Assembly: GCA_905178155.1 (NCBI GenBank)
Contig: CAJINV010000014.1
Coordinates: 2,327,923-2,391,922, forward strand
Reading direction: 5' to 3'
Source of the DNA: Amoebophrya sp. A120
Taxonomy: Eukaryota; Protista; Dinoflagellata
DNA length: 64,000 nucleotides
Shown: positions 3,112-64,000 of the stretch, one piece after another
Numbering within the stretch: the stretch's first letter is position 1
Layout: each line of letters opens with the position of its first letter
Notes under the pieces: model-generated
Database searches by the model: none
The model's input: only the letters and a program-made list of their open reading frames with translations
Told to the model about the DNA's origin: nothing
Position numbers and translations under genes: made by a program

Positions 3112-6100
3112 TCACAACCCGCGGATCTGCCTTTTGCGATCGAATTCCGAAAAGAGGTGGTTCAGGGAGCTCCCCGTGCTGTTCATTTGTGCCATCATGT
3201 GCGCACCCTCGTGATTATCAACACTGTTTCCCCGTCTCTCCGCTTTCGCGGCGGCCTTGCGCGCCTTCAGCACCTGTCTCGCGCTGCCCTCCATGCGTCT
3301 CCTGTCCGGCGACATTGATCTGGCGTACCACTGCTTGTACGGGGCTTGCCCGATGTCCATTCGCGGTAACGACTCGTGCTTTGCCGGGTAGGCCGTGACG
3401 CGCTTGTGGTCCACCATCTTCTGCGTCTCCGCCATGGAGCGCCAGAACGACGCTCGTTCCAGGTCCCTCGCTTCGTCCGCCAAGTAGGACATGACCTCCA
3501 TCTTCACGGAGATCAGCCGGAGCGGTAAGCGGGCCTGGTTCCACTCCTCCTCGGTGATGTGCAGAATATCCCGCAGCCCACGGAGGGACAACAGCGCGCA
3601 CGCTTTCACGATCATGCGCTTGATCTTTTTCGCCTCGGTCTTCTCCTGTGCGGACTTGAAGATCTCTTCGTTCTTTTTGGGCACGTGCAGGTTGTCGAAC
3701 GACCTGGTATATTTTTATGTGGGTAATATCAACCATCAAGTTGTAAGGTCATCATCATACATGATGCGCAACAAGAATGCAAACGTAATATTTTTGTCTC
3801 TTTTACGACCACCTACGTACTTCATCTAAGCCTAAGGGCACCAGAAATTTGAGTTTATTTATATTTTTAGAAGAAGTTTTTCTTATTATGTATGTAAGTA
3901 CCTAAACGGCAGCGAGTGTGTTTTCTGTCTGTCGATCATGTCCTCCAGGAAGTTCAACATAATCACTGACTCGTTCGTCTTTTCGTGGTACAGCATATTC
4001 TTTACGTCGGATACTATCGGGTTCTTCTCGATGTCCATGAAAAATCCTCGCTTCACTTTGCCCATATCGTACAGCCAATTTTCGCGGTCCGGGATCGTCT
4101 TTTCGTGCGATTTATGCATTGCAAAAGTATCGTACTAGTATAAATTGCATGACAAATTTTATCAGGAAGAAAATTGGAATTTGTAATGCAGATTCGGGTA
4201 GGAAACCAGATTTGTCATGCATGTCTGCAATTCCTACGTGTACGATACTTCTGCAGTGGATAAGATTCGATTAACGTGTTGTTGATCAGGGTCCCGTCGA
4301 TGAATTTCGGTTTGCTCATGTCGATATCAAATGTAAAAGTGTCTGGGTCTGGAAGAATGCAACTTGTGATGCTGCATTTGGATTTCAGAAAAATCTGTAT
4401 TGCATGAGTACCAAAAGGAATGTAATTTTTGCTACGCGGAGAGGGCATTTGTCATGCGGAATAGGCATCAAGATTAGAAGCTCTCAAAGAATCTGTGTTG
4501 CTAGGGCATGCATCACAGGCATCAGGTTTCATGCAAAACGTGCATGACAGGTGTCAGAATCTTCCAGACCCAGACATTTTTACAGTTGATAGTCGATCTC
4601 GGACTCTAGCGGTAGTCGCGGCTTCCACGCCTTGATTTTCTCCAAGGGGTCGACTTTCTTTTTGGTGACGAATTCAAAGAAATCATCGGACTCATCTTCA
4701 TCGTCGTGCTCGACGACTTTCTGCACCTCGGTCTCCACATCGTCAAACATGGGGTGGTCATATTCCGACGGACGGGATTTCCGGTATTCTAGAGGTTTCA
4801 CTAACGGGTCGAAGGGAACCTTTTCCGCCATTTTCCTGCTACCACAGGGGTAAGGGTTCACGTTGTCGGCCCAAATTGTTACGGGACCGAGAAGGGTGCG
4901 GCGACCTGAAAAAATGAGTATGAGTATCGTTTGTGGGATAGTTTTTTCAGAAATGTTGGAAACTTCTACATCAAGATGGAAAAAAAACAAAGGATTGGAG
5001 TTGCAGTACTACAAAAATTCAGTTTATCTAACAATAGCGATTGCTATGCGGCGCACTAGCAGTGCTAGTCGTGCTGTGTAAATCAATCAACGAAAAAATA
5101 TACGTGGGTGCTTATGCGCCGGCACCCCTTGCGTTGAGCTGTCCGTGGCCATACTGATGCCTGTGCCTTTCCTCGAAAGCGGCGACCCAGTTTTGATGGT
5201 CACCCTGGCCCCCGCCAGCGTCTGACTCACTGTTACTTCCTCGGTTGGTGGTCTGTCTGGGGACGACCCCATACGGCCTTCCCCGGTCGTGATATTCTGC
5301 GTGCTGCTCGACCGCGACTGGACCATGGCGTTGTGGTGGTGCGAAGATCCTACAAGGTCCGGGTCCAAGAACTCTTTCGACGCGCCCCGACTTCCGATCG
5401 ACCCACCGGGGCTGAGGTCGTTTTGGTGAAAGGTTTGGGATCGGGTTTCGTGGGGTGAGGGGGCGGAGGAAGTCTTTTTGGTGCCGTGAATTTCGTCGGA
5501 AATTTGGGAGGAAATGTCTCGGGACATATTCTGCTCCAAAGGCACTTCCATTAAAGCCTGTGCCGACTTGCCCAATGCTGTTTTGCGGGTTTTTTCTTAT
5601 TTGCATCATCACGGTTGTAGAGATGAAAAATGAAAATGAAAACTTCAACAACTTTTGGCACAATTATAACGCAATTATCCTGTACATGGAGAAAACTCTG
5701 TGACGAGGACGTTCTTTGGATTCGTACAGGTACTATCGCTAACAAGATCAAGATCGGATCAAGAAAATCAACATGCATTTCTTGCCTCAAGAAGCTCCTG
5801 TCACGACAGGAGAGGACTCTAACAAAATACCGCTGATCGGCCTCCCTTCCACGGTGTAAAGTGGCAGCGTTTTCGTGGCGTCCCAATCTGCCGAGCTTCT
5901 CCTGCCGCGCGTCAAGGTCTCCAAAGTGTCTTCTTCCGCTAGTTTCGATCTTTCCTCGGCGGAATTTGATCTCCGGTAGGACTGGCCGTTTTTGTTCAGA
6001 AAATGGGCCGAGTTGTAGCTGAACACCTTCTTGTTCTGTGCGTCTGTAGTGGAGGATTAGATTGTACTGTTTTTTGACAGACAATAGAGAAGGTCAAGAT

Positions 6101-7679
6101 ACAACGCGTGTCTGCAGCCATGTCTGACTACTTTTTATCAGCACCACTGCCAATTTGACCCCTTGCGCAAAGAACTGGCACGCGGCACATCCGGGTATGA
6201 TCTCAAGTGAATTTTAAAAAAAACAAAAACCGAATGTAATTTATCACAATTTTTTGAAAAATAAATACAGATCTGCGCCATTCTATCTTCGTGTTCCCCG
6301 TCTTCCATCTGCCTTCCGACCTTCGTGTTCCTCTCTTTCGTCTGCGACAAGTACACCGAGTTAAACACGGACCCCTGTTGCCCGTGGACAAACACCAGAT
6401 CCGTGTTCAGGTCTTCCTGTTCCTCCTGCCGCTTGTACCCCTGTCTCGACCGGTGTTTCGCCTCGGTTAATGCCTGCTCCATGTCGGGGAGCCGGATCGG
6501 ACACGTGCCGTGGGCGGTGGCGTAGGCGGTTTTCCGCAAGTCGAATATGGGGCTCTCAAGCGTTACATTCTCAATTGTTACATGAATTCGTCATGCAAAA
6601 GCACCATCATCATCCACGCGATCAAGCTGCTTCGCATGACAAATTTGCCTAGGGCTAAACAACACCTAAATTGTGCTGAATTTGTAATGCTACAGGCGCA
6701 ATCTTTCACTTTTGCTTTTCCCATTCTTGCATCACAAATCCATCATGTAAAAGTTGAGAATGTAACATTTGAGAACGCCATATCGAAGAATCTGCGGTTC
6801 GAATCCGCGTACAAATCGATGTCGCGGAGGAGATTCGACAGAATGTCGTTGTACACGCAGGTCACGTCGGATAACTTCAGCGACATATGCAATGCAAAGG
6901 CATCGTACTCTAGTGTAAATTGCATGACAGGTTTTTTCAAGATAAAAAATGCAATTTGTAATGCTGATTTACCTTACTTGCTGGATCTGTCACGCAAGAC
7001 GGCGATTTGCACGAGTACCATACTTTTGCACAGGATACGACAACTTCTGCAGCAACTCGTTCTGCCGCATGTACCACAGCTTCGCGTCCAACGTGTTTAC
7101 CGTCGTGCTATGCGACACGAAATTCCGGTTTCGAACCAACCCGTTGTTCACCTGATTGTGGATTTTCGCGTCGAACATAATCTGCCCCGTTTGGCTCGCG
7201 GGGTGTAAAACCGTATTCGGCGGGACTTTGGTACCGCCGGAACTGGTTTGCTCGATTTTGGTTCTCCTAGATGAAACGTGCAGTCCGGGGATGGAGAGCA
7301 TGCCCTCCTCGGCGGAACTGGCATTCTCGGACTCGGTTAACGTCAACCCGGTCTTCGTTTTCAAAGTTGGGGTCTTCAGGGCCGGCTTCTTGTGGAAATT
7401 GACGTGGTCACTGGTCAGCCGGTGGTCGGCGAGCGTAACGTCGACAAGGGACTTCAAATATTCCGTTCGGTTTTCGCCCGTTTTCTTCAGGCTCGTGAGC
7501 AAGTCGGAGGTTTTTTCCCGGGTTGGGGAAGCGTCGAAGGATTCCAGTACCTCCCGGTCGTTTGCCGGATCCGCCGTGACGGGCAGCCCGGGGGAAAGGT
7601 CGCGCTCACCCCACATGCTCGTAGTTTTCCTATTCCGGTCGGAGGATTCTACTTGTTCACCTCCGTCGTGAAGACCCAT
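3112..7679 (-). CDS. Multi-exon hypothetical protein (about 9 exons; 4 GT-AG introns and 4 TIR introns)
   Basis: Minus-strand ORF pieces join in frame across GT-AG introns (6044-6268, 5578-5830, 4906-5103, about 3704-3901) and across four TIR elements (junctions QKLS|LK, RRFFD|LRK, SEID|MSK, LIES|HEK). No family recognised; start codon uncertain. Confidence 0.7.
4113..4262. mobile_element. TIR intron/introner, family A (150 bp)
   Basis: Ends tatgcattgcaaaagtatcgtac ... gtacgatacttctgcagtggata; flanking repeat cgatt/agatt (1 mismatch). Removal restores the frame. Confidence 0.9.
4325..4591. mobile_element. TIR intron/introner, family B (267 bp)
   Basis: Ends tatcaaatgtaaaagtgtctgggtctggaaga ... 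tcttccagacccagacatttttacagttgata; direct repeat gtcga. Frame restored (EID|MSK). Confidence 0.92.
6546..6782. mobile_element. TIR intron/introner, family C (237 bp)
   Basis: Ends tatggggctctcaagcgttacattctcaa ... ttgagaatgtaacatttgagaacgccata; direct repeat tcgaa. Frame restored (FFD|LRK). Confidence 0.92.
6886..7037. mobile_element. TIR intron/introner, family A (152 bp)
   Basis: Ends tatgcaatgcaaaggcatcgtac ... gtaccatacttttgcacaggata; direct repeat cgaca. Frame restored. Confidence 0.9.
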
Positions 7680-9762: not shown

Positions 9763-10147
9763 TTTGGCGATTCGGTTTTGGTAGTTTTTGTAGTACTAAA
9801 AACTTCGTATATGCGGTTGAGAAAGGGTAGAAGTTGTGTTGATTCCTCGTCGAAAGACAAAGAAGGTAGGAGTTTTCGCGGCCGTGTGTGATATTAATTC
9901 GAAGATTTTATTTGTTTTGCAACAGATGCAAAAGCAAAATACAGCGCTGGGGATATCAATTGGAATACGAAGTAGACACTTGATGCGGTGCTGTATCTTC
10001 GCAGACGGGACATGTAATAGAATTGCCTAGTATCGTTGACGATGATGGTGCATGGAAATGCCTAGTCTGATTCGTTTGATCCAACCGATGATCTGCCAGG
10101 ATCTCCATTCGTTCCCATTTGCTCCGCTGAGTGCTATCCTTTTGAAG

Positions 10148-13535: not shown

Positions 13536-13732
13536 GAGTGCTATCCTTTTGAAGATGATCTTGGAAGCGTCGGGATCGCATTTTGTCCGAGCGTGTCTTT
13601 TTGTACGTATTTCTTTGCGTTGACATCATGATTTTTTTTATGTGGATCATCATGACAAACCAATAATATAAATATTTACTACGATGATCATCTTGTTGTA
13701 CATGATCGCACTACCTCCATTGCGTCTGGTTA

Positions 13733-13800
13733 CCTCCTTGTCACATGCACGCCTCCTTGTCACATGGTACATTGATCGCACTAGCTCCTTGTCACATGCA
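13733..13800. repeat. Three short imperfect direct repeats (ctccttgtcacatg)
   Basis: The motif is seen three times in intergenic DNA. Confidence 0.6.
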
Positions 13801-18669: not shown

Positions 18670-21600
18670 TTATGCAAACAAACTGCTATTCAACAACGAC
18701 TTTCTCTCCACACTGGTGCTGCACTTTTCGTTTTCTTGCACAAGCTTCAAGTGGTCGTTACTCAAACTGTTCGGCGGCCGCTCCACACATCGCGTCCGTC
18801 GGCTGAAAGGGTCTGACACGCGATCGCTAATTTGTTGGTCCCGAATTATATTGTGCTTGTGACAACTCGAGTTGTCGTGGTCAACGCCCGCGAGGGACGT
18901 TCTTGCCCGTGGAGGTGGGAAGAAGTTTGACCTTGTGAAGTTGTGGTAGCTGCTTGGTAGAGCAGGAACGACTGCAGCACTTCCACCAGGAGTCGCCGTT
19001 CTGATGCTGATACTATCTTGCAACGAGCCGCGCATCGTTGTTGTACTAGAAGCCGGTATTGACACGGACGCGGGCGTCACCACCGCGGGCGCCGCTGTGA
19101 AGATCGGAGTGCTCTTTCCAGGCACTGGCCGTGCTAGTCCTAGTGCTGCACTTTCTTGGTGTTGTTGTGGATGGTGCGAGAGGACCCTATCACTTTTGCC
19201 GGGACGAGTTGATGCTTGGTCGTAGCCACGCCTGTAAGCATTCGTATTGTAGTTCTCTGTGTCGTGGTTGAAATGCACCTTGGCCGCCGCTGCACTTTGA
19301 CGGCTCAAAATCTCATCAAAATTTCCGCTGGAGATGCTCCATTCCTCACTAGCGCTGTTCCTGTCTAAAGTATTTGTCATGCTTGCTGCCCCGGAAGCTC
19401 CAGCAGGCGGTAAAGCATTTTCATCAGACTGCGACAGATCCTTCTGCCCAGCTCGTAGTTGGTGTGCAGCTGGTTGTACCCCCGGAGGTCTCGCGACTTC
19501 CCGATCTCTCAAGTCCATGTGCAGCTCGCGGCCGAAAAGATTTTTCTGTTTTTTCAAGTTCATCGAGGAATTTAGTGTAGTACTCTCCTTGGTACTGATG
19601 TTTGTGTCTGCAAGAACGACGACATCTCCGACTCGACCCTGTCCTGGTATTAAAATCTGCTGTCTTGCCGTGGCGGTCCAGTTCGGTGGCTGCGGGAGGT
19701 GGTCTCTCGCCAGTGGTGTCGCACTGAGAATGCTACTGTGCTCCTCTACATCCAAGGTATAGCGTCCAGTTGTGCAGCCGGTGGGAAAAGATCTGTCAGG
19801 AAGTAGCTTCGGCCTGCTGCGAGAAGCCGCGGGAGCAGGACCTTGACCTTGTCCGTAATTCGAATTCCCCCGTGCAGGTTCTGGTAGGTGGAAAGTCTCA
19901 CTGGAGTTGTCGGCCAAACTAGACATCGAAATCTCACTCTTCGGGGAAGATTGACAGGACGAAGGTAGCCGCACGATGGGATAATCTTCATACAGCCCCT
20001 GCTGTTCACCGCGTCTGGTTTTCTTGTCACCAGCTGCAGCTGCCAATATCAAATTCGAGGGATTCTTATGTGGCGGTCTTGTTCGCTGTCTCGCCACCGG
20101 GGCGCCGGTTGCGGGTCGTTGTGCACTTCTAGTAGTTGTAGATGAAATTACACCAACGCCAGCAACTCCCGATGGAACAGACAAATGTGCTGGTCCCCTT
20201 CTCGGGCTCGGCTTGAACGGGGGCAGCACCGCGGGCGAGCCCTGCAACCGCTCACTATCGTCGAGCTTCTGCGGTTCCTTGGTCAGCTTCTTTCTGCTGT
20301 TTGTTGCGTCAGAGGTGGAGGAGGAGGACGTCGACGCTGTGGGGTTATTTACATCGCCGTTTCGAAGATTCGTGGTTCTGCCATCCAGGGTGAGTGAACC
20401 TAAAACTGCTGTTCCGTAAGTGTTTGGCGGCCTCGCTGGCGTGAGGATTAGCGCTGGCGGGGGTTGGAGGACAGGGGTTGTGTTGGCTTCTTTTTGACGA
20501 TGGTATCGTTGTGATGTACCGCCTTGTGCAGTAGAACCATCTAGACTACTACCCGGACGATGCTGCAGATTGCCACTCGAGTTCGATTTGTTGAGCTGGA
20601 GCATCTCATTGAAATTGCTCGACGTAACACTGTCCAGGGAGTAGTGGCCCTGGCCGCGACCTCCAGGGGCAAGAATTTGGGAAGATGAAGAAATCATCAC
20701 ACCTCCTTGTTCGTTGACGCGCAATTCCGGCACACCAAACCCATGTCCACCAGAAGATGAAACAGGTGGTGAGTTGCTCAAGCTGGTTGCGCTGTGGGAC
20801 GTCGTGTGGTTGTAGTCTTCGTGCGTACTCTCCTCCGCAGTGGTGTGCTGGTTTGAGTCGTGGTATACAGGAAAGTCGTCGTGGTTGGTACAGTTCTTAG
20901 AGGAATTTGCTGGCGGGAACACGACGAGGTGATCCCGTTCGACGTCGTGCTGTCGTGTTTCTTCGTTGGCGTTGTTCCCTGACTTATTCGCCCCCGAACT
21001 AGCAGAACACAACATGCCGGACACGCCTGACGACAGTGCCGATGCCGTGGACAGAGACCGCATCTGCGCTCTGGAAGACTCAATCTCCTTCAGTAATTGC
21101 TCTAACTCTTCCACCCGCAAACTGGTACGTGCAAAGGTGGAGTCCATATTGCCAAAATTGTTGTCAACGCTAGGTACAGCACCAAGTGCAGCAGATGTTG
21201 TGCAAGTAAGATCACGATCACCTCCCTGATGGTCGCGATCTTCGCCAGCACGTATCCCCGGAAACAGCCTCTTCAGTACCGTCAAAATATCAAGTGTAAA
21301 AATGTCTGGGTCTGGAAGATTCTGACACTTGGCATGCACGTTTTGCATGAGCCATGATGTCTGTGATGCATACTCTAGCAATACAGATTTTTTGAGGGCT
21401 TTCTGATGCTTCTTCCGCATGACAAATGCCTTCTCAGCGTAGCAAAAATTGCATTTCCTTTAGTACTGATGCAATACAGATTTTCTTGGAATCCAAATGC
21501 AGCATCACAAGTTGCATTCTTCCAGACTCAGACATTTTTACATTTGATACAAAAATGCCTTCTGTAACTCTCGGTTTTTCAAATGTTCTGTATCCACCTT

Positions 21601-24600
21601 TGACTTTAGATTTTGCATCTCGGAGTGGAGCTGGTGTTCCACTGACTTGAACTCAGACGCAAGGGAGGCGAGCGCGACTTGAATCTTCTCTTCGATCACG
21701 CTGTGTTGATCATCCGCTGCAGAACTTGTGTCCTCCTCTTCCCCGGCAGCCGATGTCGATCCCGCCCTACTTCGCCCACTTCTGCACGACCGCTGCTGCC
21801 CAGCAGTTCTTGGATGAAAGCTGTTTTCGATGTACCCGAAGAGCCGCTCTCTCGCTTTCTGGTCCAGCGACAGGGACAGGTCTTGCAAGATCGAGGCGTT
21901 CGCGCTCCCCGCCAGGAGGTCAATCGTGCGTCGCTGGATGTTGTTGGAGGAATCTGGCGCAAAAACGTCTTGCCGGTTTTGATCGTGGTCAGAGGAAAGA
22001 ACTTGTGCTGCGGTAGAAGCAGGATTACGACATCTTCCGGGAACCCCGACTACATCTTGCTTGCTCACCACCATCCTCGCTTGTACGGAGCTTGCTTGCT
22101 TCGGTGAAGAACCATTGGACCGCAATTCCATCTCTGCATCGTGATCGTGATCTCCATGTAGTAGATTTTTGCTGCCTGATGTGCTAGAAGTACAAGAATC
22201 CCCCGGGGGGGCCTGCTCCTCCCCCTCGAGCTGATGCTGATGGATTCGCTTTCTCATTCTCGTACCAAACTGCCTGCTGCTCGCGTACAACTTGTCTACG
22301 GGATGGTAATCGAAATTCTTTGTTGCGTGCGTTGTTCCACCTGCACCTCCCCCGCCGAATTCCGCGGACATCAGCTTATGCAAATCATCCACCGAGTACC
22401 TTCTCGAGTTGTTCAAAACTGAAGAGTTGTAACTGGAGGCCCGTGTGTGCGTTGGCGTAGATTTTCTTGAGGATTTCCGCGAATCTGTGAACTTCGTTGG
22501 CTATCGTGGGAAAAAAGTGTTATAGTTACACACTCTGATGGGAGATAAGCAAGACAGAGAAGCTCTGTCATGCAGGAAATGTTTGCCAACCTGATTTCAT
22601 TCGTGTTTTCCCTTGTAGTCTGCGCATCACAGGTTTTCTTTGCCATGTCGAGCACCTTTGTGATGCAGAACCTCCAACAAATGTGTAACTGTAACACTTT
22701 TTTCTTGTGATATTGGCGGGACGAGGTCTACTTCTGGTTGTTGTACGGAAGATGATGCCGCTGGAGCTGCAGCTTTCTGGTCGTACAACTCCTGTAGTCC
22801 GGTCTTATTCGTGCTGTCGTGCTGACTCGACGTGCTAAAAGTACTATCCCGGTGCAGCTGGAAATGCTCCTCTTGTTGAACCTTATTTTTCAACGGGAGA
22901 CCACTGTCCGCGTAGTACGGCGTCTTACTCGCTGTGCTGGAGAGTCGGAGGAAGTTAGTAGACGCTGCACCTTTATCATTTTCAACACCGACCACCTGTG
23001 GCTTTGCATTCTTGCAAGACCCAGGAAAAAACGAAATCGACGCTTGCACTTTCACAAATTCACCAGTGTTCTTCTTGTTCTTCGGCTGGTTGCAGCTGTG
23101 TCTGGCTTCTTGTTCAACTACAGTGTTAGTCTGCTCTTGCATCACGACGTCATCCGAGAATGTGCATGATGTGGCAGGAACTTTCGACGCTTTTCTACGA
23201 CTTTGACTTTCCTGGACAAGGACAGTCTCGTTATAGCAACTGTCCTTTTCGAAGAACTCTTCGTCTTCCAAGCTTGCTGCCTGCGGCGACTCCAATCGGA
23301 AATTTTCCTCGAGCATCATAACATCACCGCGACGATCGTCAGTGGTTGCATCTTGTTCGTCCCTGCGAACTACAGATGTTGAAACTAAATCCGACTTTGC
23401 TGACCACGTTCCTGAGCAAATCGCGACGACCTGGTGGCTGGAACGCGACAGATTCGACGACCGGACGGAGGCTGATCCATTGGATCGGGAGCGGCCACGA
23501 GAAGTTATTTGCTCTTCATCCTTTCGCGGCTGCGGAATGCGCAACTCCTGGGCCAACGGCAACATCCCAGTACGATGATCCAACCTTCTGCAATTCGGAA
23601 TCCAGTCTTGCCACTGCAGCCCCTGTCTGGGCATGGTGGTCAAAATTCGTGACACCTTCCACTTCTTTTTGTCCACATCATCCCGGATTAAAGCTGCTAG
23701 CATGCAACAGCCCTCTTCCGCCTTCAAGGCGATCGTCGCGGAAGTGATTGTTTCCTGCTTCTTTTGCAAGACGAGGCCGTCCACCAGAGTAGGTAGTTTC
23801 GGCGTTCTGACTCCTGTCGCGGAAGCAGTACAACTGCAACTATTATTGTGCACCATCTTCCTTAGGAAAAACTGCAGTTTGGTCGCGGGATCAAACGACG
23901 TTTCCTTTGGGCTATCTCCTCCGCGCAAAAACCTCCCTGCTCTCGAGGAGGAAGACGCTGATCTGCTCCTGGTCTTCTTGCCCCTCCCGAACAAAGAACT
24001 ACGTCCGCTCCCACCCGGGATTCGATTGGCCGCGAAGAGCAAGATGTCCACTTCCGGTTGTTCTTTCAACAAGCGGGATAAGTCAATTTGGATGCGGTGG
24101 TGGTCTTTCATTTCCGTGGCTCGTCCACTTGTATTTGTACAACCTGGCATAGTTCTTCTCGCACCCTCTTGGTGTTCTTGCAACCCTTCGAGAAGAAGTA
24201 GATCCTCGTCGTCGTCAACCAACGCAGCATCATCTTCGTCTGCACGACCGGCTGCATGATCATCGGGGCCGAAAACCCGATTGAACAAGCTGCAGGTGCT
24301 AGACGTAGATTTGCAAGTCGAGGAGAGCATAGTAGAGCTGCTGTTAATATTTCGGTTGTTGTTCGCGAGGTTTGTTCGACTTGAGGTTGATGACGCAGGG
24401 GTGACATCAGAGGAAAAAATCTGCTGCAATTGATCATGCCGACTGTTGTGATCCTCATTGGAGTTGTGGGAGGACGACGACCCAACTGCGGCGCCGTAGA
24501 AATTTCTTGCCAACCTGCTTGTGCTTGTCCCTCGTCCCCTTGGCATCCGCGTAGTTGTCCTCGCGCCAGCCGGTTGCAACGAGGGCGCACGGCTGCTCGA

Positions 24601-24882: not shown

Positions 24883-26077
24883 TGTGATGGATTCAGATTT
24901 TTCTCTTGTTTGGTGCCGAAGCTGCTCTCAAGTCGTGGAGATAAATCAATATTCGATGATACTTTGCTCACTTCACAAACTATGTGTATGTGGAAGATAG
25001 ACCACCACCTCCGGAGGCATCGGTAGGTAGTCGAGCGCCTTGTACAATCGCCGTTATTTGCTTCTGCTGCTCATGCTTGTTTCTTGCATGCCCCAATTTT
25101 GACTGACAACTCGACCGCAACCTGCTGGCTCTGCTCTTCTCGGTGTGCGGTTATTCAGATCGGCCGAACACATACACATAGAGAAGCGTTTTGAATTTTG
25201 TTGTTCTACTCAAAACGAAAAAAAGCAGGGCTCGTTATTTCTAGTACTCTCAACGACGTATGCGAAATGATTCAGACTGAAACAGCAACGCACGCCAGCA
25301 CGACAGAGGAAATCTGGCCTCAGAGGACGTTCTTCTTCCAGCAGTACTGCCGTGTGCGAACAGCTTGTCACGTGACAACCCGCGATGCTCCTGCGTCCAA
25401 ACTCCGGGAAGAGGAAGGCGTCATCAAGCACCAGCTGGTATTTGTTTTTGCATTTTTGCCTTCCTCAGACATCATACAAAATTGAATTCGGTCCCGAGAC
25501 GCGGAGGTTTCGAGTATTCCACAAACGGTTTCTTGATGCCAGACCTCTACTCTAGTTGTACAGCGTCGCACGGTGGCATCACGCCGCACCGGTAGTGGGC
25601 CTTCATCTTGCTTCTCGCCGACGAGGTAGACTGTGACCGTGAAGAAAAAAAAATATTTTGTACAGTGGATGTGTACGTGTAGTACTAGTAGTAGTAGGTG
25701 TGGTGCATTACAAAAAATTTTTGCAACAAGGTGCGTGAGCAAATACATCCCAGGTGACGGTCACCAGGACCGGGCACGCCGGATTAATCGATAGAGTCGG
25801 AAGTGACTCAAACTAACAAGAGCAATTAAATAAGTGTATGCTAAAACATAAACAGGCACAAACACAAATCATATCGAATACCAATAATCATACATGCTCG
25901 TCAAGGGTGTGCTCTACTATATCTTTGTGCTGGTTGTCACTACCAAGAAGCGCAGATATACTTCGGCTATTCAGAAGATTTCTTCAAAAGCCCTGCTCCT
26001 CTTGACAACCAATATAGTACAACGCCTATCGACAGGCTCCTCGCGCCGGAGAAGATTTGATACAGTCGATACGCTCC

Positions 26078-27503
26078 TTAGAACAAATCGATGATAAAAT
26101 CCCCCACATCGCCCGCGAAGTCGCCTAACTCGTCGATGACGAACTCAGCTCCGTCCCCAATCGTGCCCGCGGCGTCGACCGCGAAATCGCCGACATCTCC
26201 TACCGCATCGGTTGCGAACGCACCTACGTCCTGTGCAGCATCCGCAGCAAACGCACCTACATCTTTTGCGGCGTCCGTGGCAAACGCACCCACGTCCTGC
26301 GCAGCATTCGCGGCAAACGCACCTGCGTCTTGCGCAACGTCCGTAGCGGCCGCGCCGACATCCTGCGCGGCGTCCGCCGCAAAGGCGCCAACGTCTCCTG
26401 CCGCGTCCGCAGCACCAGCAACCACGCCGTCCAGTTGACCTGTACAGAAGTTGGGGAGAGTTCTACTACTTTATTGGTGGACAACGACAACACAACTGGA
26501 AATCTGAATTTCATCATTTTCATCAAATTTACTTAGATAGCTAGCTACCATTCTGCGCCATGACTCCCAGGGCCACACCACCCCCGATTACTGCCGCGGC
26601 GCCAACGCCCGCAGCCGCGCCGACTGCGACTCCTTTCCCGTAGCCCGGGCCAGATTGTCCACCACTCTTGTTGACGTCACCTCCACCCGCACCGTTATTG
26701 GAGTTAGCCAGCGCTGGCTGCGAGCCGCCAGCTGCAGTGCCTGGCTGCGCGACAATCTTCGGTCCCAGTGGAGGAACGGGAACGAGCAAGGTAGCGCCCG
26801 GTCGAGCGTTTGGCGGGACGGTTACCTGTCGTCATTATTTTTAATATCTTGTGCTTGTCATGCGTGCGCGTGCCCATGAAGAAACAACATCACAATGATG
26901 TCCTCCGTCAGTAGTTGTAGTAGAAAACATCGGAAAAGTTAAAGGTAAAGCGTACAACAATTATACCTGCATCATGACAGCTTTGTTATGCGGGTGCGGC
27001 ACGTGAAGCACGTCCCCTCCACGGGCGGTTGTCGGAACTGTGACGCAGATCGTGGGGCCTGGCGGCACGACCGGACGGTCCGGCGGCCGCAGGTTTGGCG
27101 GCGCTCGAATTTGGCGGCGCTTACCCGAAGCGAGATTTACCTAGTTGTTGATGGTGGTCTGATGTGGTCGCGGTGATTTTATTCATTCATTTTTTTTGTG
27201 AGGAGCATACAACTCTGTCGCAGCACCAGCTCCGAGCACTATTATCAATTTTTTTTTTTCCTTCCACCGACAGACTCTACTTCGTGCAACATATGATTTT
27301 GCAAGTTCGTATGATGATCATCAAACATCATTCGACAGTACCTGGTTCATCGTTCCAAAGTTGTATTCGTAGCTCTGCCCTCGCAGCTGGTATCTGCAGT
27401 TCTTCATGCCGCTCATGTAAGCGCGGGTCAGAAAAGCATTCTCCTCGTCGCTGTAGTCCCGCCATTGGCCGGAGAGCTTGATTTGAAACTTGAACTTTCC
27501 CAT
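26078..27503 (-). CDS. WWE-domain protein with a hydrophobic segment and C-terminal 11-aa repeats
   Basis: Four exons with GT-AG introns (27503-27342, 27140-26967, 26825-26549, 26439-26078). WRDYSDEENAFLTRAY...YEYNFGTMNQ|VNLASGKRRQIR fits WWE; the tail is (DVGAFAADAAQ)n. Confidence 0.8.
26100..26420 (-). repeat. Coding tandem repeat, 33-bp unit (11 aa, DVGAFAADAAQ-like)
   Basis: About 8-9 degenerate units are visible in ORF 26078-26425. Confidence 0.85.
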
Positions 27504-55859: not shown

Positions 55860-58800
55860 TTACACAGATTCCGTGTCCAAGCTTCCCTTTTCCTGCTCAC
55901 TCTCCCCCTCGCCAGCTTCTATCTGCTGCTCCTCCTCCTCCTCCGCCTCTTCTTCTTCGTGCTCATGCTCACCCTCATCCAGCACCCCGCCGTCTCCTGG
56001 AACAACATCATCCGCAGCTGCCTCCACCTCTACCACCGCAGAAGTACTACCAGCCCCGGGTTGCGGCACCACAGCCCCCCGCCCACTCGGGCTCGCCGCT
56101 CCGGTGGAAACGGACGTGACAGATATTCTCTGCACGTTCGGCATCGCGGTAATCAACACCGGATCCGGGAGAGGCTGTGCCACGATTGCGACACCACCCT
56201 TAGGGGATTTAATCCCGCCCGGCGGGACCTCGACTTCCTCCGGCTCTTCCTCCTTCTTCTCCTCTTCCGCATCCTCTTCGGCGGCTACCTTTTTGCCCCA
56301 GGGCATCTTCGCGGACAGGGGCGAGCTGTTCGCCAGCGCCTCGGCGGCCCGGGCGGACCACTCCTCGTGCTTGGCGAGAATGGCGTCGTCCATGTCAAAG
56401 ATGTTGATCAACCCGAAGGGTCGCACGAACTTCTGCCACAACCCCAGAATGGCCGCGAAAATCGCGGTGTAACCGGCCAGGGCGCCGATCAGAGCGAGTA
56501 ACCCCGCGAGGGACATTATCCTGAGTAAAAACGTACCCACACCAGAGTTGTGATGCAAATCTGCATGCCAAAAAAGTTTGTCATGCGGAGCGCCACGAGA
56601 GGCATTTTCTCGCCATCTTTTGGAACTTGTGATGCTATAATCTGCATGATATGCTAGATCTCTGATGCTGCTGAACTCCTACCGAAACAGGATTACACTA
56701 CGAGGAGAAATTCGTCATGCCAAATGACCAAAGCTGGCTGATTTGTCTAGCAGAGTTCCCATCTTGACTCTGGTCGTGTGGGGACGTTTTTACAAATGAT
56801 AGACATGTTGGGGATTTCTTTAAACCGGATCGACGCGTGGTCGATTTCGAAAACCAGCCTGACCGAGCATTTCGACTTCATGGTGTGGTCCGCCTGGCCG
56901 TACGAGATGTCAAGCGCGCCAATGTTGGACACCCACCGGTCCAGGATGATAGAACCGTCATACTTGTGCTCCAGATAGATCGGGGAGACGGACCAAACCT
57001 GAAGGAATTGTTCGTTTCAATTTGTATGTTTTCGTTTTGTCCATTTGCGGATCATCTTGGTTCAAATTGCCAATCGAAAATCGGTTCTGACGTCTTGCAT
57101 GTCATGCGTTCTTCAAAAAGATTTTTCCGGGACCGTAACAGCTGCTTCCACTTATCCACATGAAACAGATGATGAACTACTATTCTATACCAGCCTAATT
57201 TGGATCGCTCTTTGCGGCAGAATCGCGATCCTGCCGTCCTCGGAGCTGGTCAACCCGCGTAAAGCTGCCGACAAGTCAATCGTCTGCGACTCCAAATTTG
57301 TGAACAACTTCTCCAGCTTCTCATCGTGATCACTAGGCGGCCAGTACTCCGGCTCCGTGTTCTCTAACACATCCTTCGTCTTCTCGCGGTCGACCGTCAT
57401 GTGAATCGAGGGCAGAAACATGGGAGCGTTGGCCGGAATGCCCTGCGCGCACCCATTTACCGTGTTCATGCACTTCGCTTTCCCCCTGACGATATGGATT
57501 GCAAAAGTGTCTGGGTCTGGAAGAGTGCAGGAGTTTGTCATGCATATTTTGCATGCCCCATGAGGTCTGTGATGCATGCCCTAGCATCAGAGATTTTGCG
57601 AGGGCTTTCTGATGCTCATACCGCATGAGAAATGCCCTCTCCGCGTGCCACAAATCATACCTCTTTTGCTGTTCATGCAATACAGATTTTATGTAGAGTC
57701 CAAAGGTAGCATCACAAGTTCCAATCTTCCAGACCCAGACATTTTTGCAATTCATATACGAGGGGCTCCGCGGCCCAGAGCCGCATCTGCCCGTCCACGT
57801 AATCGGTTATGGCGTTCTCAAATGTTACACTCTCAACTGTTACATGAATTTCTAATGCAAGAATGGGAAAAGTGAAAGGGGGGAAGTTGCGCCTTTTGCA
57901 TTACAGGTTTGGCGCAGATTCTAATGCTATCTAGCGCGTCAAAAACTTGTCATGCGAAGAAGGCCTGATCGTGTGAAGAATGTTAGCGCTTTTGCATGAC
58001 AAATCATGTAACAGTTGAGAATGTAACGTTTGAGAACCCCATATCGGTGGACCCGGACATGTAGGCCTTTTCCACGTCGAGAAACTTCTTGTCGAACGTC
58101 AAAGAGAAGATGGTTTCCAAATCCAGCCCCCACTCCGGTTTGGTCGACGCGAACCCTGCGTCCCCCCGCTCCTCGGGCAATCGCCAGTGCCCCGTAAGGG
58201 GGCCTTTGATCTCGTATTGGAAGGTGTTGGTGGGCAGGAACTCCTCCAGGTAGAACATCCGGTACTTTCCCTCCGAAATGTCCTTCATGTTCTTCGCAGA
58301 CAGAGCCATGTTGTTCTTCCCGCCGGCCTGAAGCTTTCTCCGACCACCACCACCACCGGCACCACCACCACCTCCGCTGGTGCCGTTGACAAACGTGAAG
58401 GGGGTGTTTTGGCAGTTCATCGTGCGAAAGTTGTCGCTGTGTTCAAACGTCCAGGAGGCCCAGCCGCCGCCTTCCACGGACCGATCTTGGGAATAGATGT
58501 TGACCAGCTTTTCGTTCGCCACGATCCGGTTCGGACAGAGGGGCAGAGCGCCATTGGCTTGTTGAATCTGGACCCTCTTCGGCATGACGAAGAGCCCCAC
58601 CTCGACTATGGGGTTCTCAAGCGTTACATTCTCAACTGTTACATGATTTGTCATGCAAAATGACTATTACCCTCCAGACGATCAAGCTGCTTTGCATGAC
58701 AAATTCTCGGAGGGCTAAATAGCACTGAAATCCGCACCAAACCTGTAATGCAAGACGCGCAAGGTTCTCCCTCTCGCCTGTGCTAGTGTTGCATTACAAA

Positions 58801-61800
58801 TTCATGTAACGGTTGAGAATGTAACGTTTGAGAACGCCATATCGACCTCGAGCACGTTCGGCGAAGTGAAAGTCTCCGTCATATCAAAGAAAAAAAGTTC
58901 GTCACGATCACTCATGCGCATTCTTGCAATACAAAATTGTTTGTCATGCGTAAAAATGCATCACAGCCAAACTTTATTAGGGATTTCCCTAGTGTTTCTG
59001 CAACACAAGGAAAGTTTGTGATGCTGAGAAAATTTGTAATGCAAAACCTGCAAGTTAGTGACTGTGACAAACTTTTTTCTCTCCATACGTCACGGTTTCC
59101 TTGTAGCGGTCTTTCGGGAGGTAAACGGAGGACTTGTCGCGGAAAAGATTCACCGCGGTAATGGTTTGGACCACATAGGAAATTACCTGAATGAGAAGCG
59201 TTTTGGTGCTAGCGATTTGCCTCTGATACAACAAGGCAAATACATGCAGACGAGAGCGCGAGCGAGACAGCGAAGTGGTCGCTCCAATATGACATATTTT
59301 TGTTTTAGAACAAGCATCACTCGTAACATGTCAGCACTAGTAGTACCTTCTTTGCCGGCATTTTCTGCGCCACGCTCGCCGCAAACGCGGACACGGCTTC
59401 CGCGACCGTATCGGCTCCGGAGACCACCTTTGTAGTGTGCACTTTGTCGTAGAACCCCAAATCCGTGAGTTGCTGTTGCGACAACGACGGCAGTGCGCAC
59501 TGCGGCACCTGGTCGATCTTCGCGTTTGGGGGCCACTTCGTGTTGTCCGACCAGTCTAGCGTCCCGGCCGGGCAGGTAATGGTCGTCGTACGCGTGGTCG
59601 CGTTGCTGCTGTTACTGCTGTTGGTACTACTCGTCAGTTGCCGTCTCCGCTCCCCCGTTAACTCGTCCACGTACCATTGGCTATTTTCTTCCTGTTCGGA
59701 GAAGATCAAAAACCGCCTTTCGTATTCCTCGCTCCCGGGTAGCGCGGTGGCGAAATCCAAAGGGTCGTTCTGGACGGTGTTCGCCCCGGCACTGTACAGC
59801 TCCTCCGTCAGTTCCCCGTTTTGCCCATACAGATTCATGATGGATCCGCCTTCAGGAAGAATCATGTGACTGTACTGCTCCCGTAAGACGTCATTCGGGT
59901 GCTTTTCCTTAATTGCTCCTGCAGCCGAAGAAGTCCCGTCGAATGGTGCAGAACTATCCTCATTGTCGCCTTCCATCTTTTTTCTGTCCTCGAATTCCTT
60001 GACTGCGGACAGGTGATCCGACCCCCGGATCGCGTCGAGTCTCCTCCATTCCAGCGCCTCCGGGGAAATCTCGTGGTAGTCTGGGATGTCTTCCTGCAGC
60101 TTGCGGATCGAGTGCTCGCTGTGGCCGTGGATCTTCATCAGTTTGATCCAGTCCTCGTCGTTAAAGACGTCGTTTTTCAGCGTCTCCGCCATGGTCGACG
60201 CGTCCATTGAGTGCGGCGTGGATTGTAATCTGTCTCGGGTAACCACCTCGTGCATCCAGGGGAATTTTTCCTTCAATCGCAAAAAGATCATCTCCTCCTC
60301 TTCCGACATGTAGTGCGGCTCTAATAATCGTCTTCTCCTCTCTTCGGATGTTTCCTCTTCCATCTTTTTCTGCTGTTCTAGGAATCTTTTGTTCGTTTCT
60401 TTCTTCGCTTCTCTCCTCTCCTTCCGGAGGTTTTCAAAATAAGCGATCTTTTCGTTCAACAACTCCGCTTCCTTTTTGTAATCCTCCTTCTCCTTATCTG
60501 TCCACTCCTTCTTTCTTGCCTTTTCCAGCAGCCCACTATCGGTCAAGCTGGCCTTCAGCCGGATCGCCTGGCCGATGGATTCTAGATCCTTCCGGTATTT
60601 GAAATTGTTTTCCGATACGCGGCGCGTCGTCCTGGGCCACATGGAGGTTGCGCCGTAGCCGGAAGAGTAGCTGGGCCCCATCATGCCAGGCATATTGGTC
60701 GAGGTTTCGTAGTAATTATTGTTGTCATTCCAGCTTCCGTGACCGCTGGCCATCCCATCATCGGGCGGGCCGGTCGTGCCGTACATGTTGTCATCGTTCC
60801 AAGTTCCGTGGTTGTTGGTCGTCCCACTTCCGGTTGACATACCAGGCATCGGGGTCTTCCAGTTCGGCGTGTGGACCGGTGGGCTGGTGCTAGCGTGGTC
60901 CCAGTTTCCCGTGTTTCCCGTGCTGGGTGGCGATGTCGTGTGCATCGGATCTGTCGTGCCGTAGGTCGGCTGGTAGTAGCCGGGCCGCGACGTGGTCTGC
61001 TGGTAGGGATCGTAGTACGGATCGTGCTGACCGCCATACGGGTCATAGGGGTCGTGCTGCCCGCCGTACGGGTCATAGGGGTCGTGGTAACCACCATACG
61101 GGTCGTGCATGTCCACGTCGTTGTACCCCGCGACCGTCATCCCCGCATCTTGCATCATGTCCATGGCCATCAGCATGGCCGGATCCACATACCCGCTTCC
61201 CGACCCCGTGGCGGACCCCATCTGCGTCACCATGGCCGCCATGGCGTTGGTGTCCGGCATTTTCGTTTCCGTCTTGACCGCCACCGTTACCGCGGTGGCG
61301 GCGATCGCAATAGTTCCCACGAATCTCAACTCGTTCTGCAGGTTCTTCAGCAAGTTGGCCGAGGACACCGTGGCCATTTGCGTTCCGAAGTTGTCGGCCT
61401 CCTGTTTGTCCTTCTTCGCAATCTCGAAATCGACCTGGACGGAGGTCGCGGCGAGTCGCCGTTTCGCCGCGTTTTTGTGGTGGTGGTAGGGCTTTTGCTC
61501 CCGGAAGGGGACTTTGCGCTCCTTGTTTTTCTCTTTCAGCATCTCCAACTCGCGCCTGCTATATCAAATGTAAAAGTGTCTGGGTCTGGAAGAATGCAAC
61601 TTGTCATGCTAAATCTGAAGCATGCAAAAATCTGTGTTGCATGATTACCAAAAGTCGTCCAGTTTTGACCAAGTCGGGAGGGAGTTTCTCATGCAGGATA
61701 GGCATGAGAGAGATTGCGCAGAATCTGTCATGCTAGGTCCTGCATTCCAGGCTTCATGGGTCATGGAAAAGCTGCATGACAAACCGCGCATTCTTCCAGA

Positions 61801-64000
61801 CCCAGACATTTTTACATTTGATATGCTAGATCCGACCACGAAGTTCTTGATCTCCACCTCGTACGGTGCGACGGAATACGTATCGGCCAGGGCGATATGG
61901 AATGCAAAGAGGTCTGGGTCTGGAAGAGTCATGCTGTTTTTGCATGACACAGAAGGTCTGGCATGGATGCTCTAGCATCACAGGTTTCGAGAAGCTTCCG
62001 CATCCGCAATGCCGAATCCGCATGACAAATCACCCACTTTGGTGACAGAAAGTGGGCAGCTTTTGCTACCTATGCATGAGAGATTTTTCTGCGTTCTGAA
62101 ATGCGCATCGCAAGTTTGTATTCTTCCAGACCCAGACATATTTGCAATCCATAGGCGAACCGAAAGGAGTCCACCACTTCTGGATCATCCAACAACTGCG
62201 CTCCGGTGGTTCCGGCCGGCAAGTCCATCGCCAGCGTCACATTCGCCTTCACCACTGGCGTGGTCTGCACCGTTTGCCCGCCGAAACTCACCTTCCCGCC
62301 GGTACAGTGTATGGGACTCTCAAACGTTACACTCTCAACTGTTACATGAAATTTGTATTGTAATGCAAGAATGGCAAAAGTGAAAGGGAAAACATTGCGC
62401 CTTTTGCATTACAGGTGTGGAGCAGATTATAATGCTATCTAGCGCATCGAGAAGTTGTCATGCGGAGAAGGCTTGATCGTGTTAAGAGTGGTAGTGTTTT
62501 TGCATGACAAATCATGTAACAGTTGAGAATGTAACATTTGAGAACGCCATACAGTGGGGCGGCGGGTTTTCGGAGTAGCACATGGGGTCCACGGACTCCG
62601 CGTTTATGCATTGCAAAAGCATCGCTCTCGTACTAATTGCAGATATGCATGACAAATCGCCTTTCTTAGCATTAGCTACAACAGCATTACAAATTCCATT
62701 TGTAATGCTAAGCTAATCATTATTTGCAATGCAATTTATACTAGTACGATGCTTTTGCACAGGATAGCGTTTTCCAACAGCAAATGCATCATGTCGTGGG
62801 ACTGTTCCATGATCGCGGTGTCCACGTACAGTTTCGCTTTTTCCAACGCTTTGGATTGGTACGCCGCGGCGGTGGACTCGGACACGCCCAGGGTTTCCAC
62901 CTGCGTCTGTCGTATTTAAAAACATCCCCACCCCATGATTGTAATGCAAATCTGCATGCTGAGAGTGTTTTTCATGCGGAGCCCAATCAGAAGCGTTTTC
63001 TATTCGCGTTTTGAAATTTGTCACGCTCCAATCAGCATGGTATGCTGGATCTTTGATGCTGCTGAACTACCTCAAACACCACCACACTACGAGTCCAAAT
63101 TTGTCATGCAAAACATCCAAAACTTGTGGATTTGTCTAGCCGATTCCCCATCTTGACTATGGGGTGGGGACGTTTTTACATAGGATAGCGTCCCGACCTC
63201 CCGGTTCTTTTGCAGAGGCGAGTCGATCTCGATCACCTCCCACAGGTACTTCAAGTGCTCCGGCGCTTTCAGCATGGTCCCGTTGAAGGAGCCATCCGCG
63301 GACTGGTACGCGTTTTGGGGGATGGAGGTTGGAATGCCGGTCAGATACTGGCAATACGCGTACTTTGCCGGCTGCGACTTCACCTGCCCACACGTCGGCG
63401 GGAGCTCGCCCTCGGCGAGTTCCGGCACCTTCACCACCCGGTCGTTGCCGAACGGGCAGTTGATGTTCACCTGCACGGTCACTTCCGGGTTGTCCAGCAC
63501 CGTTTCCACGTACTGTTGCGGAATCCCCCGGTCCCCCATGCAATCCCAATCCACCCGGCCGCAGTTACAGTCACACACCCCGTCCGACCACTGCTCCGGC
63601 GAGCACGTCCAGCTGGTCACCTGGTCGTCGCCGAGCTCCCCCGTGTTCGGATCAATAATCGGGAACAGCCACTGGTAGGCGCGCTTGATGGTCCGCACCT
63701 CCATCGGCGTCGTCTTCGTCTGGTCGGAACTGGAGGCCCGGATCAGAATCCGCATGTTGCTGTTTTTCGGCACTTTTTCCGTGTCGGAGAAGCCCCCGGC
63801 GTTGACCACCAGTAGCCCATCGTGTAACCCGTCGCAGAAAATACTGGAGCGACCGGTGGTGGTGTAATCGGTCCCGTCGATCGAAACCCCCGGCTTGCCG
63901 GTGGAGCTGTAGTCGCACCAGGGCCGCTCCTTCATGATCTCCGCCTTCGCGGGGTCGGTGCCAAACTGCACACGGAGCGGGGTTTCGTCGAAGTTTTCCT
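55860..64000 (-). CDS. 3' part of a giant membrane/surface protein (Cys-rich module, RRL motifs, YDPYGG repeats, C-terminal TM helix); 5'-partial
   Basis: Thirteen exon pieces join in one frame across 10 TIR elements and 2 GT-AG introns (59187-59346, 56999-57190). CSPEQWSDGVCDCNCGRVDWDC; TM LAGLLALIGALAGYTAIFAAILGLW; acidic tail. Confidence 0.85.
56517..56801. mobile_element. TIR intron/introner, family E (285 bp)
   Basis: Ends tatcctgagtaaaaacgtacccacac ... gtgtggggacgtttttacaaatgata; direct repeat gacat. Frame restored (IPNMS|LAG). Confidence 0.9.
57493..57756. mobile_element. TIR intron/introner, family B' (264 bp)
   Basis: Ends tatggattgcaaaagtgtctgggtctggaaga ... tcttccagacccagacatttttgcaattcata; repeat gacga/tacga. 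Frame restored (EPLV|RGK). Confidence 0.9.
57808..58043. mobile_element. TIR intron/introner, family C, reverse orientation (236 bp)
   Basis: Ends tatggcgttctcaaatgttacactctcaactgttacatga ... tcatgtaacagttgagaatgtaacgtttgagaaccccata; direct repeat tcggt. Confidence 0.92.
58607..58841. mobile_element. TIR intron/introner, family C (235 bp)
   Basis: Ends tatggggttctcaagcgttacattctcaac ... gttgagaatgtaacgtttgagaacgccata; direct repeat tcgac. Frame restored (LEV|EVGL). Confidence 0.92.
58882..59087. mobile_element. TIR intron/introner, family F (206 bp)
   Basis: Ends tatcaaagaaaaaaagttcgtcacgatcact ... agtgactgtgacaaacttttttctctccata; direct repeat cgtca. Frame restored (ETVT|ETF). Confidence 0.88.
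61000..61110 (-). repeat. Coding tandem repeat (HDPYDPYGGQ)n, 30-bp unit
   Basis: Seen in ORF 59317-61548 as DPYGGYHDPYDPYGGQHDPYDPYGGQHDPYYDPY. Confidence 0.85.
61562..61823. mobile_element. TIR intron/introner, family B (262 bp)
   Basis: Ends tatcaaatgtaaaagtgtctgggtctggaagaatgc ... gcattcttccagacccagacatttttacatttgata; direct repeat tgcta. Frame restored (GSS|RREL). Confidence 0.92.
61896..62153. mobile_element. TIR intron/introner, family B' (258 bp)
   Basis: Ends tatggaatgcaaagaggtctgggtctggaaga ... tcttccagacccagacatatttgcaatccata; direct repeat ggcga. Frame restored (RFA|LAD). Confidence 0.9.
62310..62551. mobile_element. TIR intron/introner, family C, reverse orientation (242 bp)
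   Basis: Ends tatgggactctcaaacgttacactctcaactg ... cagttgagaatgtaacatttgagaacgccata; direct repeat cagtg. Frame restored (PPHC|TGG). Confidence 0.92.
62605..62766. mobile_element. TIR intron/introner, family A with inverted body (162 bp)
   Basis: Ends tatgcattgcaaaagcatcg ... cgatgcttttgcacaggata; direct repeat gcgtt. Frame restored (LENA|ESV). Confidence 0.9.
62908..63187. mobile_element. TIR intron/introner, family E (280 bp; left end TGT instead of TAT)
   Basis: Ends tgtcgtatttaaaaacatccccaccccat ... atggggtggggacgtttttacataggata; direct repeat gcgtc. Frame restored (VGT|QVE). Confidence 0.9.

Follow-up and report, generated by a model that had tools for sequence, protein, structure and literature searches.

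A helically phased internal motif is shared across introner families of Amoebophrya sp. A120

We analyzed a 64,000-nucleotide stretch of the genome of the dinoflagellate Amoebophrya sp. A120 (GenBank assembly GCA_905178155.1, contig CAJINV010000014.1, forward-strand positions 2,327,923 to 2,391,922; hereafter, the window), in which short inverted-repeat elements of the kind known as introners share one internal motif, TGTVATGC (V = A, C, or G). Copies of this motif are phased at ≈10.4 to 10.5 bp, with same-orientation copies separated by whole helical turns and opposite-orientation copies by half turns, and they are also phased to the element end. Introners are already known; the internal motif and its helical phasing appear to be new. 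From sequence comparisons, we consider it probable that the motif is the double-stranded DNA site of one shared mobilizing protein, probably an integrase-like DDE transposase or an accessory subunit, and not a splicing signal. According to the text of PMC7789003, approximately two-thirds of the introns of Amoebophrya A120 are non-canonical, with their spread and their excision both open questions, and many of them are repeated "introner elements" whose inverted repeats start with TAT, followed by seven variable bases and AAA.

The window is eukaryotic, with a G+C content of 51% and genes on the minus strand; an exon at 7044–7700 matches an A120 "unnamed protein product" at 100% identity across 97% of the exon (two matches among 1089 candidates). 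We sought elements as inverted repeats, ignoring the motif, and found 19 with terminal inverted repeats (TIRs) and TAT…ATA ends, each 109 to 285 bp long and together spanning 4,209 bp. Every one of them is flanked by a 5-bp target site duplication (TSD); 17 of the 19 duplications are perfect, and the other two contain a single mismatch (4/5). TAT opens 37 of the 38 window ends, and the longer TAT-N7-AAA signature is present at 26 of these 38 ends and at 743 of 886 ends in the contig set described below; the full AAA is absent from family C ends. For each of the 19, cutting out the element together with one TSD leaves a longer open frame across the junction than cutting out 3, 4, 6, or 7 additional bases, and removal of the element plus 6 nt breaks the frame in all 19. 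All four testable junction peptides occur in the annotated protein P0001, and two of them align gap-free to a 39%-identical homolog (P0002). These sequence data suggest, indirectly, that the window elements may be removed exactly, as element plus one TSD, from the mRNA as non-canonical introns.

TGTVATGC occurs 62 times in the window (36 on the plus and 26 on the minus strand), compared with a mean of 5.8 and a maximum of 13 in 100 dinucleotide shuffles. Fifty-eight of these copies lie within the 4,209 bp of elements (13.8/kb), with two to four exact copies in each of the 19 elements, and the remaining four are spread at chance level over 59,791 bp of other sequence (0.07/kb); TGTTATGC, by comparison, occurs 0 times inside window elements. 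In a de novo gapped 8-mer search using one copy per family, TGTNATGC ranks first, with at least two copies in seven of seven families (the best of 200 shuffles reached three families). The site is broader than the 8-mer, with the consensus YY-T(G/c)T-V-(A/t)-TGC-(A/t/g) across 74 sites in 14 family consensuses. A sequence-only reading of the window had noted the recurrence of this motif in both orientations inside element families and had cautioned that its enrichment over background needed a formal test; the recurrence is confirmed, and the enrichment is far above background. Of the stray copies that reading placed outside elements, those near 22565 and 22657 fall inside an element it overlooked (22502–22712), and the one at 26856 is a true outsider within a candidate intron of the GT-AG type. 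Its list of families (A, B, B′, C, D, E, and F) changes in two respects: B′ belongs to B, and the overlooked element adds family G, making seven in the window. The family letters were assigned in this analysis, and C′ is C inverted.

An independent set came from a metagenome scan for both family B arms, which returned at least 129 stretches stored as 125 loci. We kept 117 loci of the JACKZZ01 series (≈629 kb after de-duplication), which share no match longer than 400 bp with the window DNA except element clusters; the eight loci dropped, from other contig series, contain zero to two motif copies and no called element. A motif-blind caller requiring TAT…ATA ends, a TIR score, and a TSD of at least 4/5, which makes no calls in 223 kb of resampled sequence, identified 443 elements in the JACKZZ01 loci, a set skewed toward family B (193 of 443) through retrieval with family B arms. 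Together with those of the window, the resulting 462 elements form 14 multi-copy families and 13 singletons, and seven of the 14 families are absent from the window. At least one exact motif copy is found in 428 of the 443 called elements and at least two in 391; in the seven families absent from the window, the corresponding counts are 70 and 54 of 78 members. The motif is thus present across all 14 multi-copy families, at a density of 12.1/kb in called elements, 11.2/kb in uncalled homologs, and 0.25/kb elsewhere in the contig set. The V position is C in 655 copies, G in 369, A in 271, and T in 11. In viral contigs, the pattern of direct motif pairs gave 81 loci, none with a TIR and TSD above a score of 11, and the 10 loci matched by the family B TIR word each contain one arm only and no more than one copy of the motif; we read both as chance.

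With motif and ends masked, cross-family alignments of window elements score barely above shuffles (mean z of 0.34 over 144 pairs, 7 of them above z 3). At the level of family consensuses, 9 of 91 pairs beat all 200 motif- and spacing-preserving shuffles and 82 do not. The homologous pairs are C with family 10, C with family 5, F with G (along their length), and A with family 13, plus weaker links, so that the families collapse to ≈7 clusters. All families share TAT ends, an A-tract, and the 5-bp TSD. The description of these families as otherwise unrelated in the sequence-only reading therefore holds in that most are unlike, but fails for the shared ends and TSD and for the nine pairs homologous beyond the motif. 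A deep common origin is plausible from these comparisons. Family 5 joins a C-like interior to a different, C-rich TIR resembling those of families 3 and 8, a combination suggestive of TIR exchange among families.

The helical pitch of B-DNA is 10.5 bp, and that of A-form RNA is 11. In most families, same-orientation copies lie 30–33 bp apart, and the spacers of direct pairs at 31–33 bp appear unalike by eye; opposite-orientation copies cluster at 14–17, 34–37, 45–50, 55–60, and 65–70 bp. The window by itself does not distinguish a 10.5-bp period, offset by half a turn, from a 16-bp lattice, and the offset was picked post hoc there. Four predictions were set down, and the phase score (10.5 bp, half-turn offset for opposite pairs) was fixed, before the contig set was examined. 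In the seven new families, this pre-set score gives a cosine of 0.56 (null, 0.01 ± 0.11), a value reached by none of 1500 random placements, compared with 0.40 for the 15.9-bp lattice of the window and 0.11 for 11 bp. A free scan over all 153 pairs from the 14 families is best at 10.4 bp with an offset of 5.2 (0.51, versus 0.42 for 15.9 bp). When one family is taken per cluster, in all 24 possible choices, the cosine at 10.5 bp is 0.53–0.75, as opposed to 0.19–0.47 for 16-bp lattices and about −0.1 for 11 bp.

The spacing of the motif from the termini, which the sequence-only reading had singled out for examination, is also regular. An inward-facing first site is present at 19 of 28 consensus ends, lying 32–33 bp (seven ends), 40–44 bp (nine), or 52–55 bp (three) from the end. 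For inward sites within 80 bp of the end in the new families, R is 0.76 at 10.5 bp, the two ends of a family being non-independent observations. Subfamilies shift by approximately one turn: the family B site lies at 33 in 31 ends versus 40–42, and that of family 3 lies at 44 or 55. Support is weak for a terminus that would itself be a copy of the motif, and we rejected this possibility; the matrix scores best at offset 0, yet its mean there is negative (−8 versus −15 to −24).

We examined substitution in trees of the seven largest families (416 copies), with sites defined on the consensus, a choice that mildly favors conserved columns. Relative to the remaining interior positions, the seven core positions of the motif are substituted at a rate of 0.32 on internal branches and 0.49 on terminal ones, whereas the V position changes at 1.07–1.08 of that rate. 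At V, T is the outcome of 8 of the 93 changes on internal branches and of 42 of the 194 on terminal ones, where ≈28 and 65 would be expected (calculated by hand from a background table). On propagating lineages, then, the core does not decay at the neutral rate; neutral decay among descendants of one ancestor was the outcome that the sequence-only reading had named as counting against a shared signal. Aged copies behave differently. Using damage to conserved TIR columns as an age clock and adding 158 decayed homologs, we obtained a core-to-other ratio of 0.86 (0.61–1.22) for added changes in aged copies, and 0.85 (0.62–1.14) when both flanks of a copy are open frames (182 young copies and 107 aged ones); six non-exonic aged copies were available for comparison with exonic ones. 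This ratio excludes the level of constraint seen on internal branches and includes neutrality; modest selection is compatible with it, and assembly errors would mimic neutrality. Conservation of the motif in old degenerate copies, the other point that the sequence-only reading had raised, is accordingly at most modest. The near-neutral decay in aged copies argues against hypomutable motif columns. One 1.1-kb element (locus L089, 505–1608) retains intact TIRs and TSD, and removal restores the frame, while ≈800 bp of G+C-rich repeat DNA replaces its right-hand motif array; it offers a natural test case for the need for the motif.

The sequence-only reading had proposed a common cis-signal for one trans-acting factor, and the enrichment, the occurrence in every multi-copy family, the slow change on internal branches, and the helical phasing all support that proposal. 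That 14 families have one motif, one end chemistry, and one helical grammar in common points to a single machine. Its class may be that of the integrase-like DDE enzymes, as suggested by the 5-bp TSD and TA…TA ends common to the families; the mobilizing protein could equally be an accessory or host factor. In the mechanism we favor, protomers would be bound on one helical face, three, four, or five turns from each TAT end, and the bound array would bring the ends of the 110–320-bp element into synapsis by bending or bridging it. The TSD would arise from cutting the target with a 5-bp stagger. Copies that lose sites or phase would cease to propagate, so that unlike families would retain the same array. 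A different feature, probably the terminal hairpin, would direct the removal of the element and one TSD from the RNA.

Several results weigh against mobilization by a shared DNA-binding protein. No binding protein was identified and no autonomous element was found, nor did four long elements or a long-range end search yield an open reading frame (ORF) of transposase length. Farhat et al. (2021; PMC7789003), in the text available, found no transposase in A120 and rejected transposase mobilization in general. The relatedness of families cuts the independent observations to ≈7 clusters. A free scan in the new families ties 10.4 with 16.4 bp, and the 58 adjacent pairs taken alone fit a 16.4-bp lattice (0.70) better than 10.5 bp (0.59). 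Outward-facing sites are weakly phased to the end (R of 0.30–0.44; not significant in the new families), and indels of 3–8 bp are as frequent per base in intervals of 31–33 bp as in others. The TIR-damage clock allows up to ≈40% purifying selection after insertion, and the quartile table of a second clock, based on TSD mismatches, is biased by sorting on the class compared. Finally, among 139 intron candidates of the GT-AG type that lack TIRs, called heuristically with a noisy caller, 17 carry 19 motif copies (null, 2.4; maximum, 8).

This last result bears on the possibility that a host chromatin or transcription-coupled protein binds the DNA motif and marks introns for co-transcriptional excision or repression, with transposons exploiting it and selection acting on every inserted copy. 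The strand symmetry and helical phasing of the motif are compatible with such a factor, as are point estimates of the decay ratio below 1 (0.78–0.86) and the lack of an A120 transposase in the text of PMC7789003. In the non-ORF DNA left after elements and their homologs are set aside, the motif ranks first in frequency among 1680 same-letter words (41 occurrences versus a median of 4), and copies in TIR-less DNA are often paired 31–34 or 46–47 bp apart, with an overall phase of 0.18 ± 0.13 that is not significant. The persistence of these pairs after loss of the TIRs keeps a host factor under consideration. We nonetheless judge it improbable. The decay ratio of 0.85 in aged, ORF-flanked copies is far from the value on internal branches; 9 of 227 ORF-interrupting elements have no exact copy, with near-matches remaining; the phase is tied to the transposon end; and 122 of the 139 GT-AG candidates have no copy at all. 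Furthermore, TSD-like borders are found in 10 of 17 motif-bearing but only 28 of 122 motif-free candidates (Fisher p = 0.007), as for relic insertions, an excess expected if an element landed at xxAG|G, turned canonical, and lost its ends. These borders suggest that the motif-bearing GT-AG introns may be introners turned canonical introns. Apparent GT-AG introns at L085:2220, L092:3382, L102:2396, L124:7347, L132:19310, and L152:5611 of the contig set and at 26826–26966 and 56999–57190 of the window contain the motif but have no TIR or family homology; in the contig loci, the copies form direct pairs 32–34 bp apart. Several of these introns have xxAG|G TSD-like borders.

A broader idea, which we hold to be an outside chance, is that one trans-encoded, possibly host, DNA-binding protein reads the phased arrays of tens of thousands of introners and acts in their mobilization as well as in co-transcriptional intron recognition without a splice-site consensus. 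If true, such a dual-role protein would amount to DNA-encoded intron definition and would also account for the phased pairs in TIR-less GT-AG introns.

The branch-point consensus is yUnAy, which the reverse complement of the motif resembles. The motif might accordingly be an RNA signal for the excision machinery, acting as a branch-point-like word (GCAUNAC) or through a helix of opposite copies, with both orientations permitting splicing either way. Opposite copies can pair in some predicted folds, and 14 of the 19 copies in GT-AG candidates read GCATBACA in RNA (p = 0.06), several of them 22–33 nt before the AG. The remaining evidence makes this explanation very unlikely. Gene strand could be called for 227 of the 443 elements, whose RNA contains the word 360 times and its complement 310 times, with no family biased in insertion direction; 26 of these ORF-interrupting elements have no RNA-sense word, and 26 have no complement. 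The V position does not covary between opposite sites (1044 observed versus 1060 expected of 2707). An A directly precedes the putative branch A in just 11 of 1306 copies, variation is seen at the putative −2 U and +1 C, and the motif lacks the features of a U2-type branch point (single strand, fixed 3′ distance, invariant −2 U and branch A). Neither ATNAC nor other branch-like words show enrichment close to the 3′ ends of intron candidates without the motif, Rfam has no match in the window at the gathering score, and the period is 10.4–10.5, not 11. Since strand bias and covariation are absent and decay in aged exon-interrupting copies is near neutral, an RNA-level excision signal is disfavored. 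Of the two roles that the sequence-only reading had offered, a DNA site for transposition is thus preferred to a recognition site for excision. A relationship between the end polarity of family A and the transcript strand, seen in four of four cases in the window, vanished in the larger set (22 versus 24) and was discarded.

It is similarly hard to credit that the motif and its spacing are relics, without present function, of one ancestral element with an internal 16/31-bp repeat unit: all families share their ends, nine consensus pairs are homologous, and adjacent distances fit a 16-bp lattice, but the core is constrained on internal branches while V is free with T purged, sites persist while spacers are unalike, 82 of the 91 pairs fail against the shuffles, and site order and orientation vary among families without loss of phase. 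The families probably do descend from a common ancestor, yet this history does not explain the conservation.

Mu and CACTA elements have subterminal arrays of transposase-binding sites. Similar arrays, thought to aid synapsis by avidity, are described in the text of PMC11707139 for piggyBat/piggyBac, Tol2, Ac, Tag1, and Tn7. The elements studied here resemble these in having several short motif copies inside the ends, putatively bound and conserved in mobile lineages, and differ in that the array fills an element of 110–320 bp, spans families with unlike TIRs, and is phased to the helix and the end, and in that the elements are removed as introns. Ginger1 and Ginger2 transposons have TGT…ACA termini, in contrast to the TAT…ATA ends in the window, where one end is TGT (the contig caller required TAT). 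The TSD is 4 bp for Ginger1 and 4–5 bp for Ginger2 in the text of PMC10045372, and the 5 bp in the window fit the Ginger2 range. IS3EU and GingerRoot elements, as described in the text of PMC10045372 and PMC6839031, share the TA…TA termini and have an integrase-related DDE transposase, a plausible enzyme class here; they differ in a TSD of usually 6 bp, as opposed to 5 bp here, and GingerRoot TIRs are 100–150 bp, as opposed to ≈30–45 bp. We do not file the elements under IS3EU/GingerRoot because of the usual 6-bp TSD, and no mention of a subterminal motif was found in the available text of these two sources.

Closer relatives may exist among the A120 introners themselves; in strain A25, element ends begin with TTA. 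The introners described in the text of PMC7789003 share with those of the window the TAT-N7-AAA terminal inverted repeats, direct repeats at the borders, a mean length of ≈240 nt, and multi-copy families; that text gives terminal inverted repeats and 3–5-nt direct repeats, and the internal motif, the phasing, and a uniform 5-bp TSD do not appear in it. Gozashti et al. (2025; PMC12130899) assign A120 introners to several transposable element (TE) classes in the text available, where family 38 is listed as "Ginger, 5-bp TSD, TA/TA termini" with TIRs and ORFs related to Copia/Gypsy (integrase-related). Compared by description, family 38 matches the window elements in TSD, termini, and host genome and differs in its length of ≈810 bp and its coding remnants; it is the best candidate relative of the mobilizer. 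Among the matches listed in full-text literature searches, none reports an internal motif or phasing of A120 introners. The motif has 0 matches in 12 of the 14 supplementary files of PMC12130899 (cells to 400 characters), and Amoebophrya is not mentioned in PMC12166617.

As far as their text extends, prior publications either reject transposase mobilization or split the families among many TE classes (PMC7789003, PMC12130899). The motif array offers a bait for purifying the machine, a signature for an autonomous partner, and design rules for test substrates. Setting the transposition signal apart from the splicing signal would also leave the terminal hairpin and TSD as the places in which to look for the splicing signal.

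In window coordinates, family A elements are found at 4113..4262 (cores 4147(−), 4182(+), and 4213(+); TSD CGATT/AGATT; junction peptide, with element plus 5 nt removed, in P0001), 6886..7037 (cores 6922(−) and 6957(+); TSD CGACA; junction in P0001 and gap-free versus P0002), 30306..30455 (cores 30340(−), 30375(+), and 30406(+); TSD TTCTC), and 62605..62766 (cores 62647(−), 62684(−), and 62701(+); TSD GCGTT). In the last of these, the interior is inverted relative to the asymmetric outer 10 bp, consistent with recombination between TIR arms. Family B elements lie at 4325..4591 (cores 4365(+), 4450(+), 4510(−), and 4542(−); TSD GTCGA; junction peptide in P0001), at 21288..21549, inverted relative to the 4325 copy (cores 21362(+), 21417(−), and 21502(−); TSD CAAAA), and at 61562..61823 (cores 61602(+), 61726(+), and 61774(−); TSD TGCTA), with the B′ subtype at 57493..57756 (cores 57536(+), 57568(+), and 57709(−); TSD GACGA/TACGA) and 61896..62153 (cores 61942(−), 61975(−), and 62020(−); TSD GGCGA).

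Family C is represented at 6546..6782 (cores 6634(−), 6683(+), and 6729(−); TSD TCGAA; junction in P0001 and gap-free versus P0002), 31117..31357 (cores 31159(+), 31254(+), and 31301(−); TSD GTCGA), and 58607..58841 (cores 58649(+), 58694(−), 58744(+), and 58791(−); TSD TCGAC), and in inverted orientation at 57808..58043 (cores 57898(−), 57948(+), and 57994(−); TSD TCGGT) and 62310..62551 (cores 62359(+), 62406(−), 62456(+), and 62502(−); TSD CAGTG). Family D elements occupy 56517..56801 (cores 56549(+), 56579(+), and 56628(+); TSD GACAT) and 62908..63187 (cores 62940(+) and 63102(+); TSD GCGTC); the second begins with TGT rather than TAT at 62908–62910, its TSD is perfect, and its removal still restores the frame. 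The family E element, at 32863..32971, is 109 bp long with two same-strand cores, 32896(+) and 32928(+), 32 bp apart (TSD AAAGA). Family F, related to G, lies at 58882..59087 (cores 58942(+), 58958(−), 59017(+), and 59035(+); TSD CGTCA), and the overlooked family G element lies at 22502..22712 (cores 22566(+), 22624(−), and 22659(+); TSD TTGGC).

The copies outside TIR elements are at 26856..26863 (+), in the minus-strand GT-AG-type intron candidate 26826–26966, which has a 4/5 TSD-like border; at 57100..57107 (+), in a second such minus-strand candidate, 56999–57190; at 19375..19382 (+), in a long minus-strand ORF; and at 25705..25712 (−). The last two are at chance level.

Other repeats and insertions were observed nearby. 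In family alignments of loci L082–L206, counted per copy and not per event, 3-nt insertions are unusually common (319, versus 262 of 2 nt and 84 of 4 nt), whereas 3-nt deletions (42) are not. A hairpin of ≈120 bp is nested inside a family 7 introner at L087:1804–2235, and ≈700 bp with ACAGATGAC repeats in both orientations are nested in an A-like copy at L112:18646–19571. Within the window, a 626-codon ORF on the minus strand at 11660–13540 has, by eye, a putative RNase H-like tail typical of non-long-terminal-repeat retroelements. A G+C-rich block at 39772–41102 has 71-bp inverted arms and an inner TTCTA(A/G)AA array, forward on the left and reversed on the right, and is possibly another foldback-type element, with a different repeat. 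Another G+C-rich block, intergenic and repeat-like, spans 53400–54770 and is free of TAT…ATA elements and of the motif.

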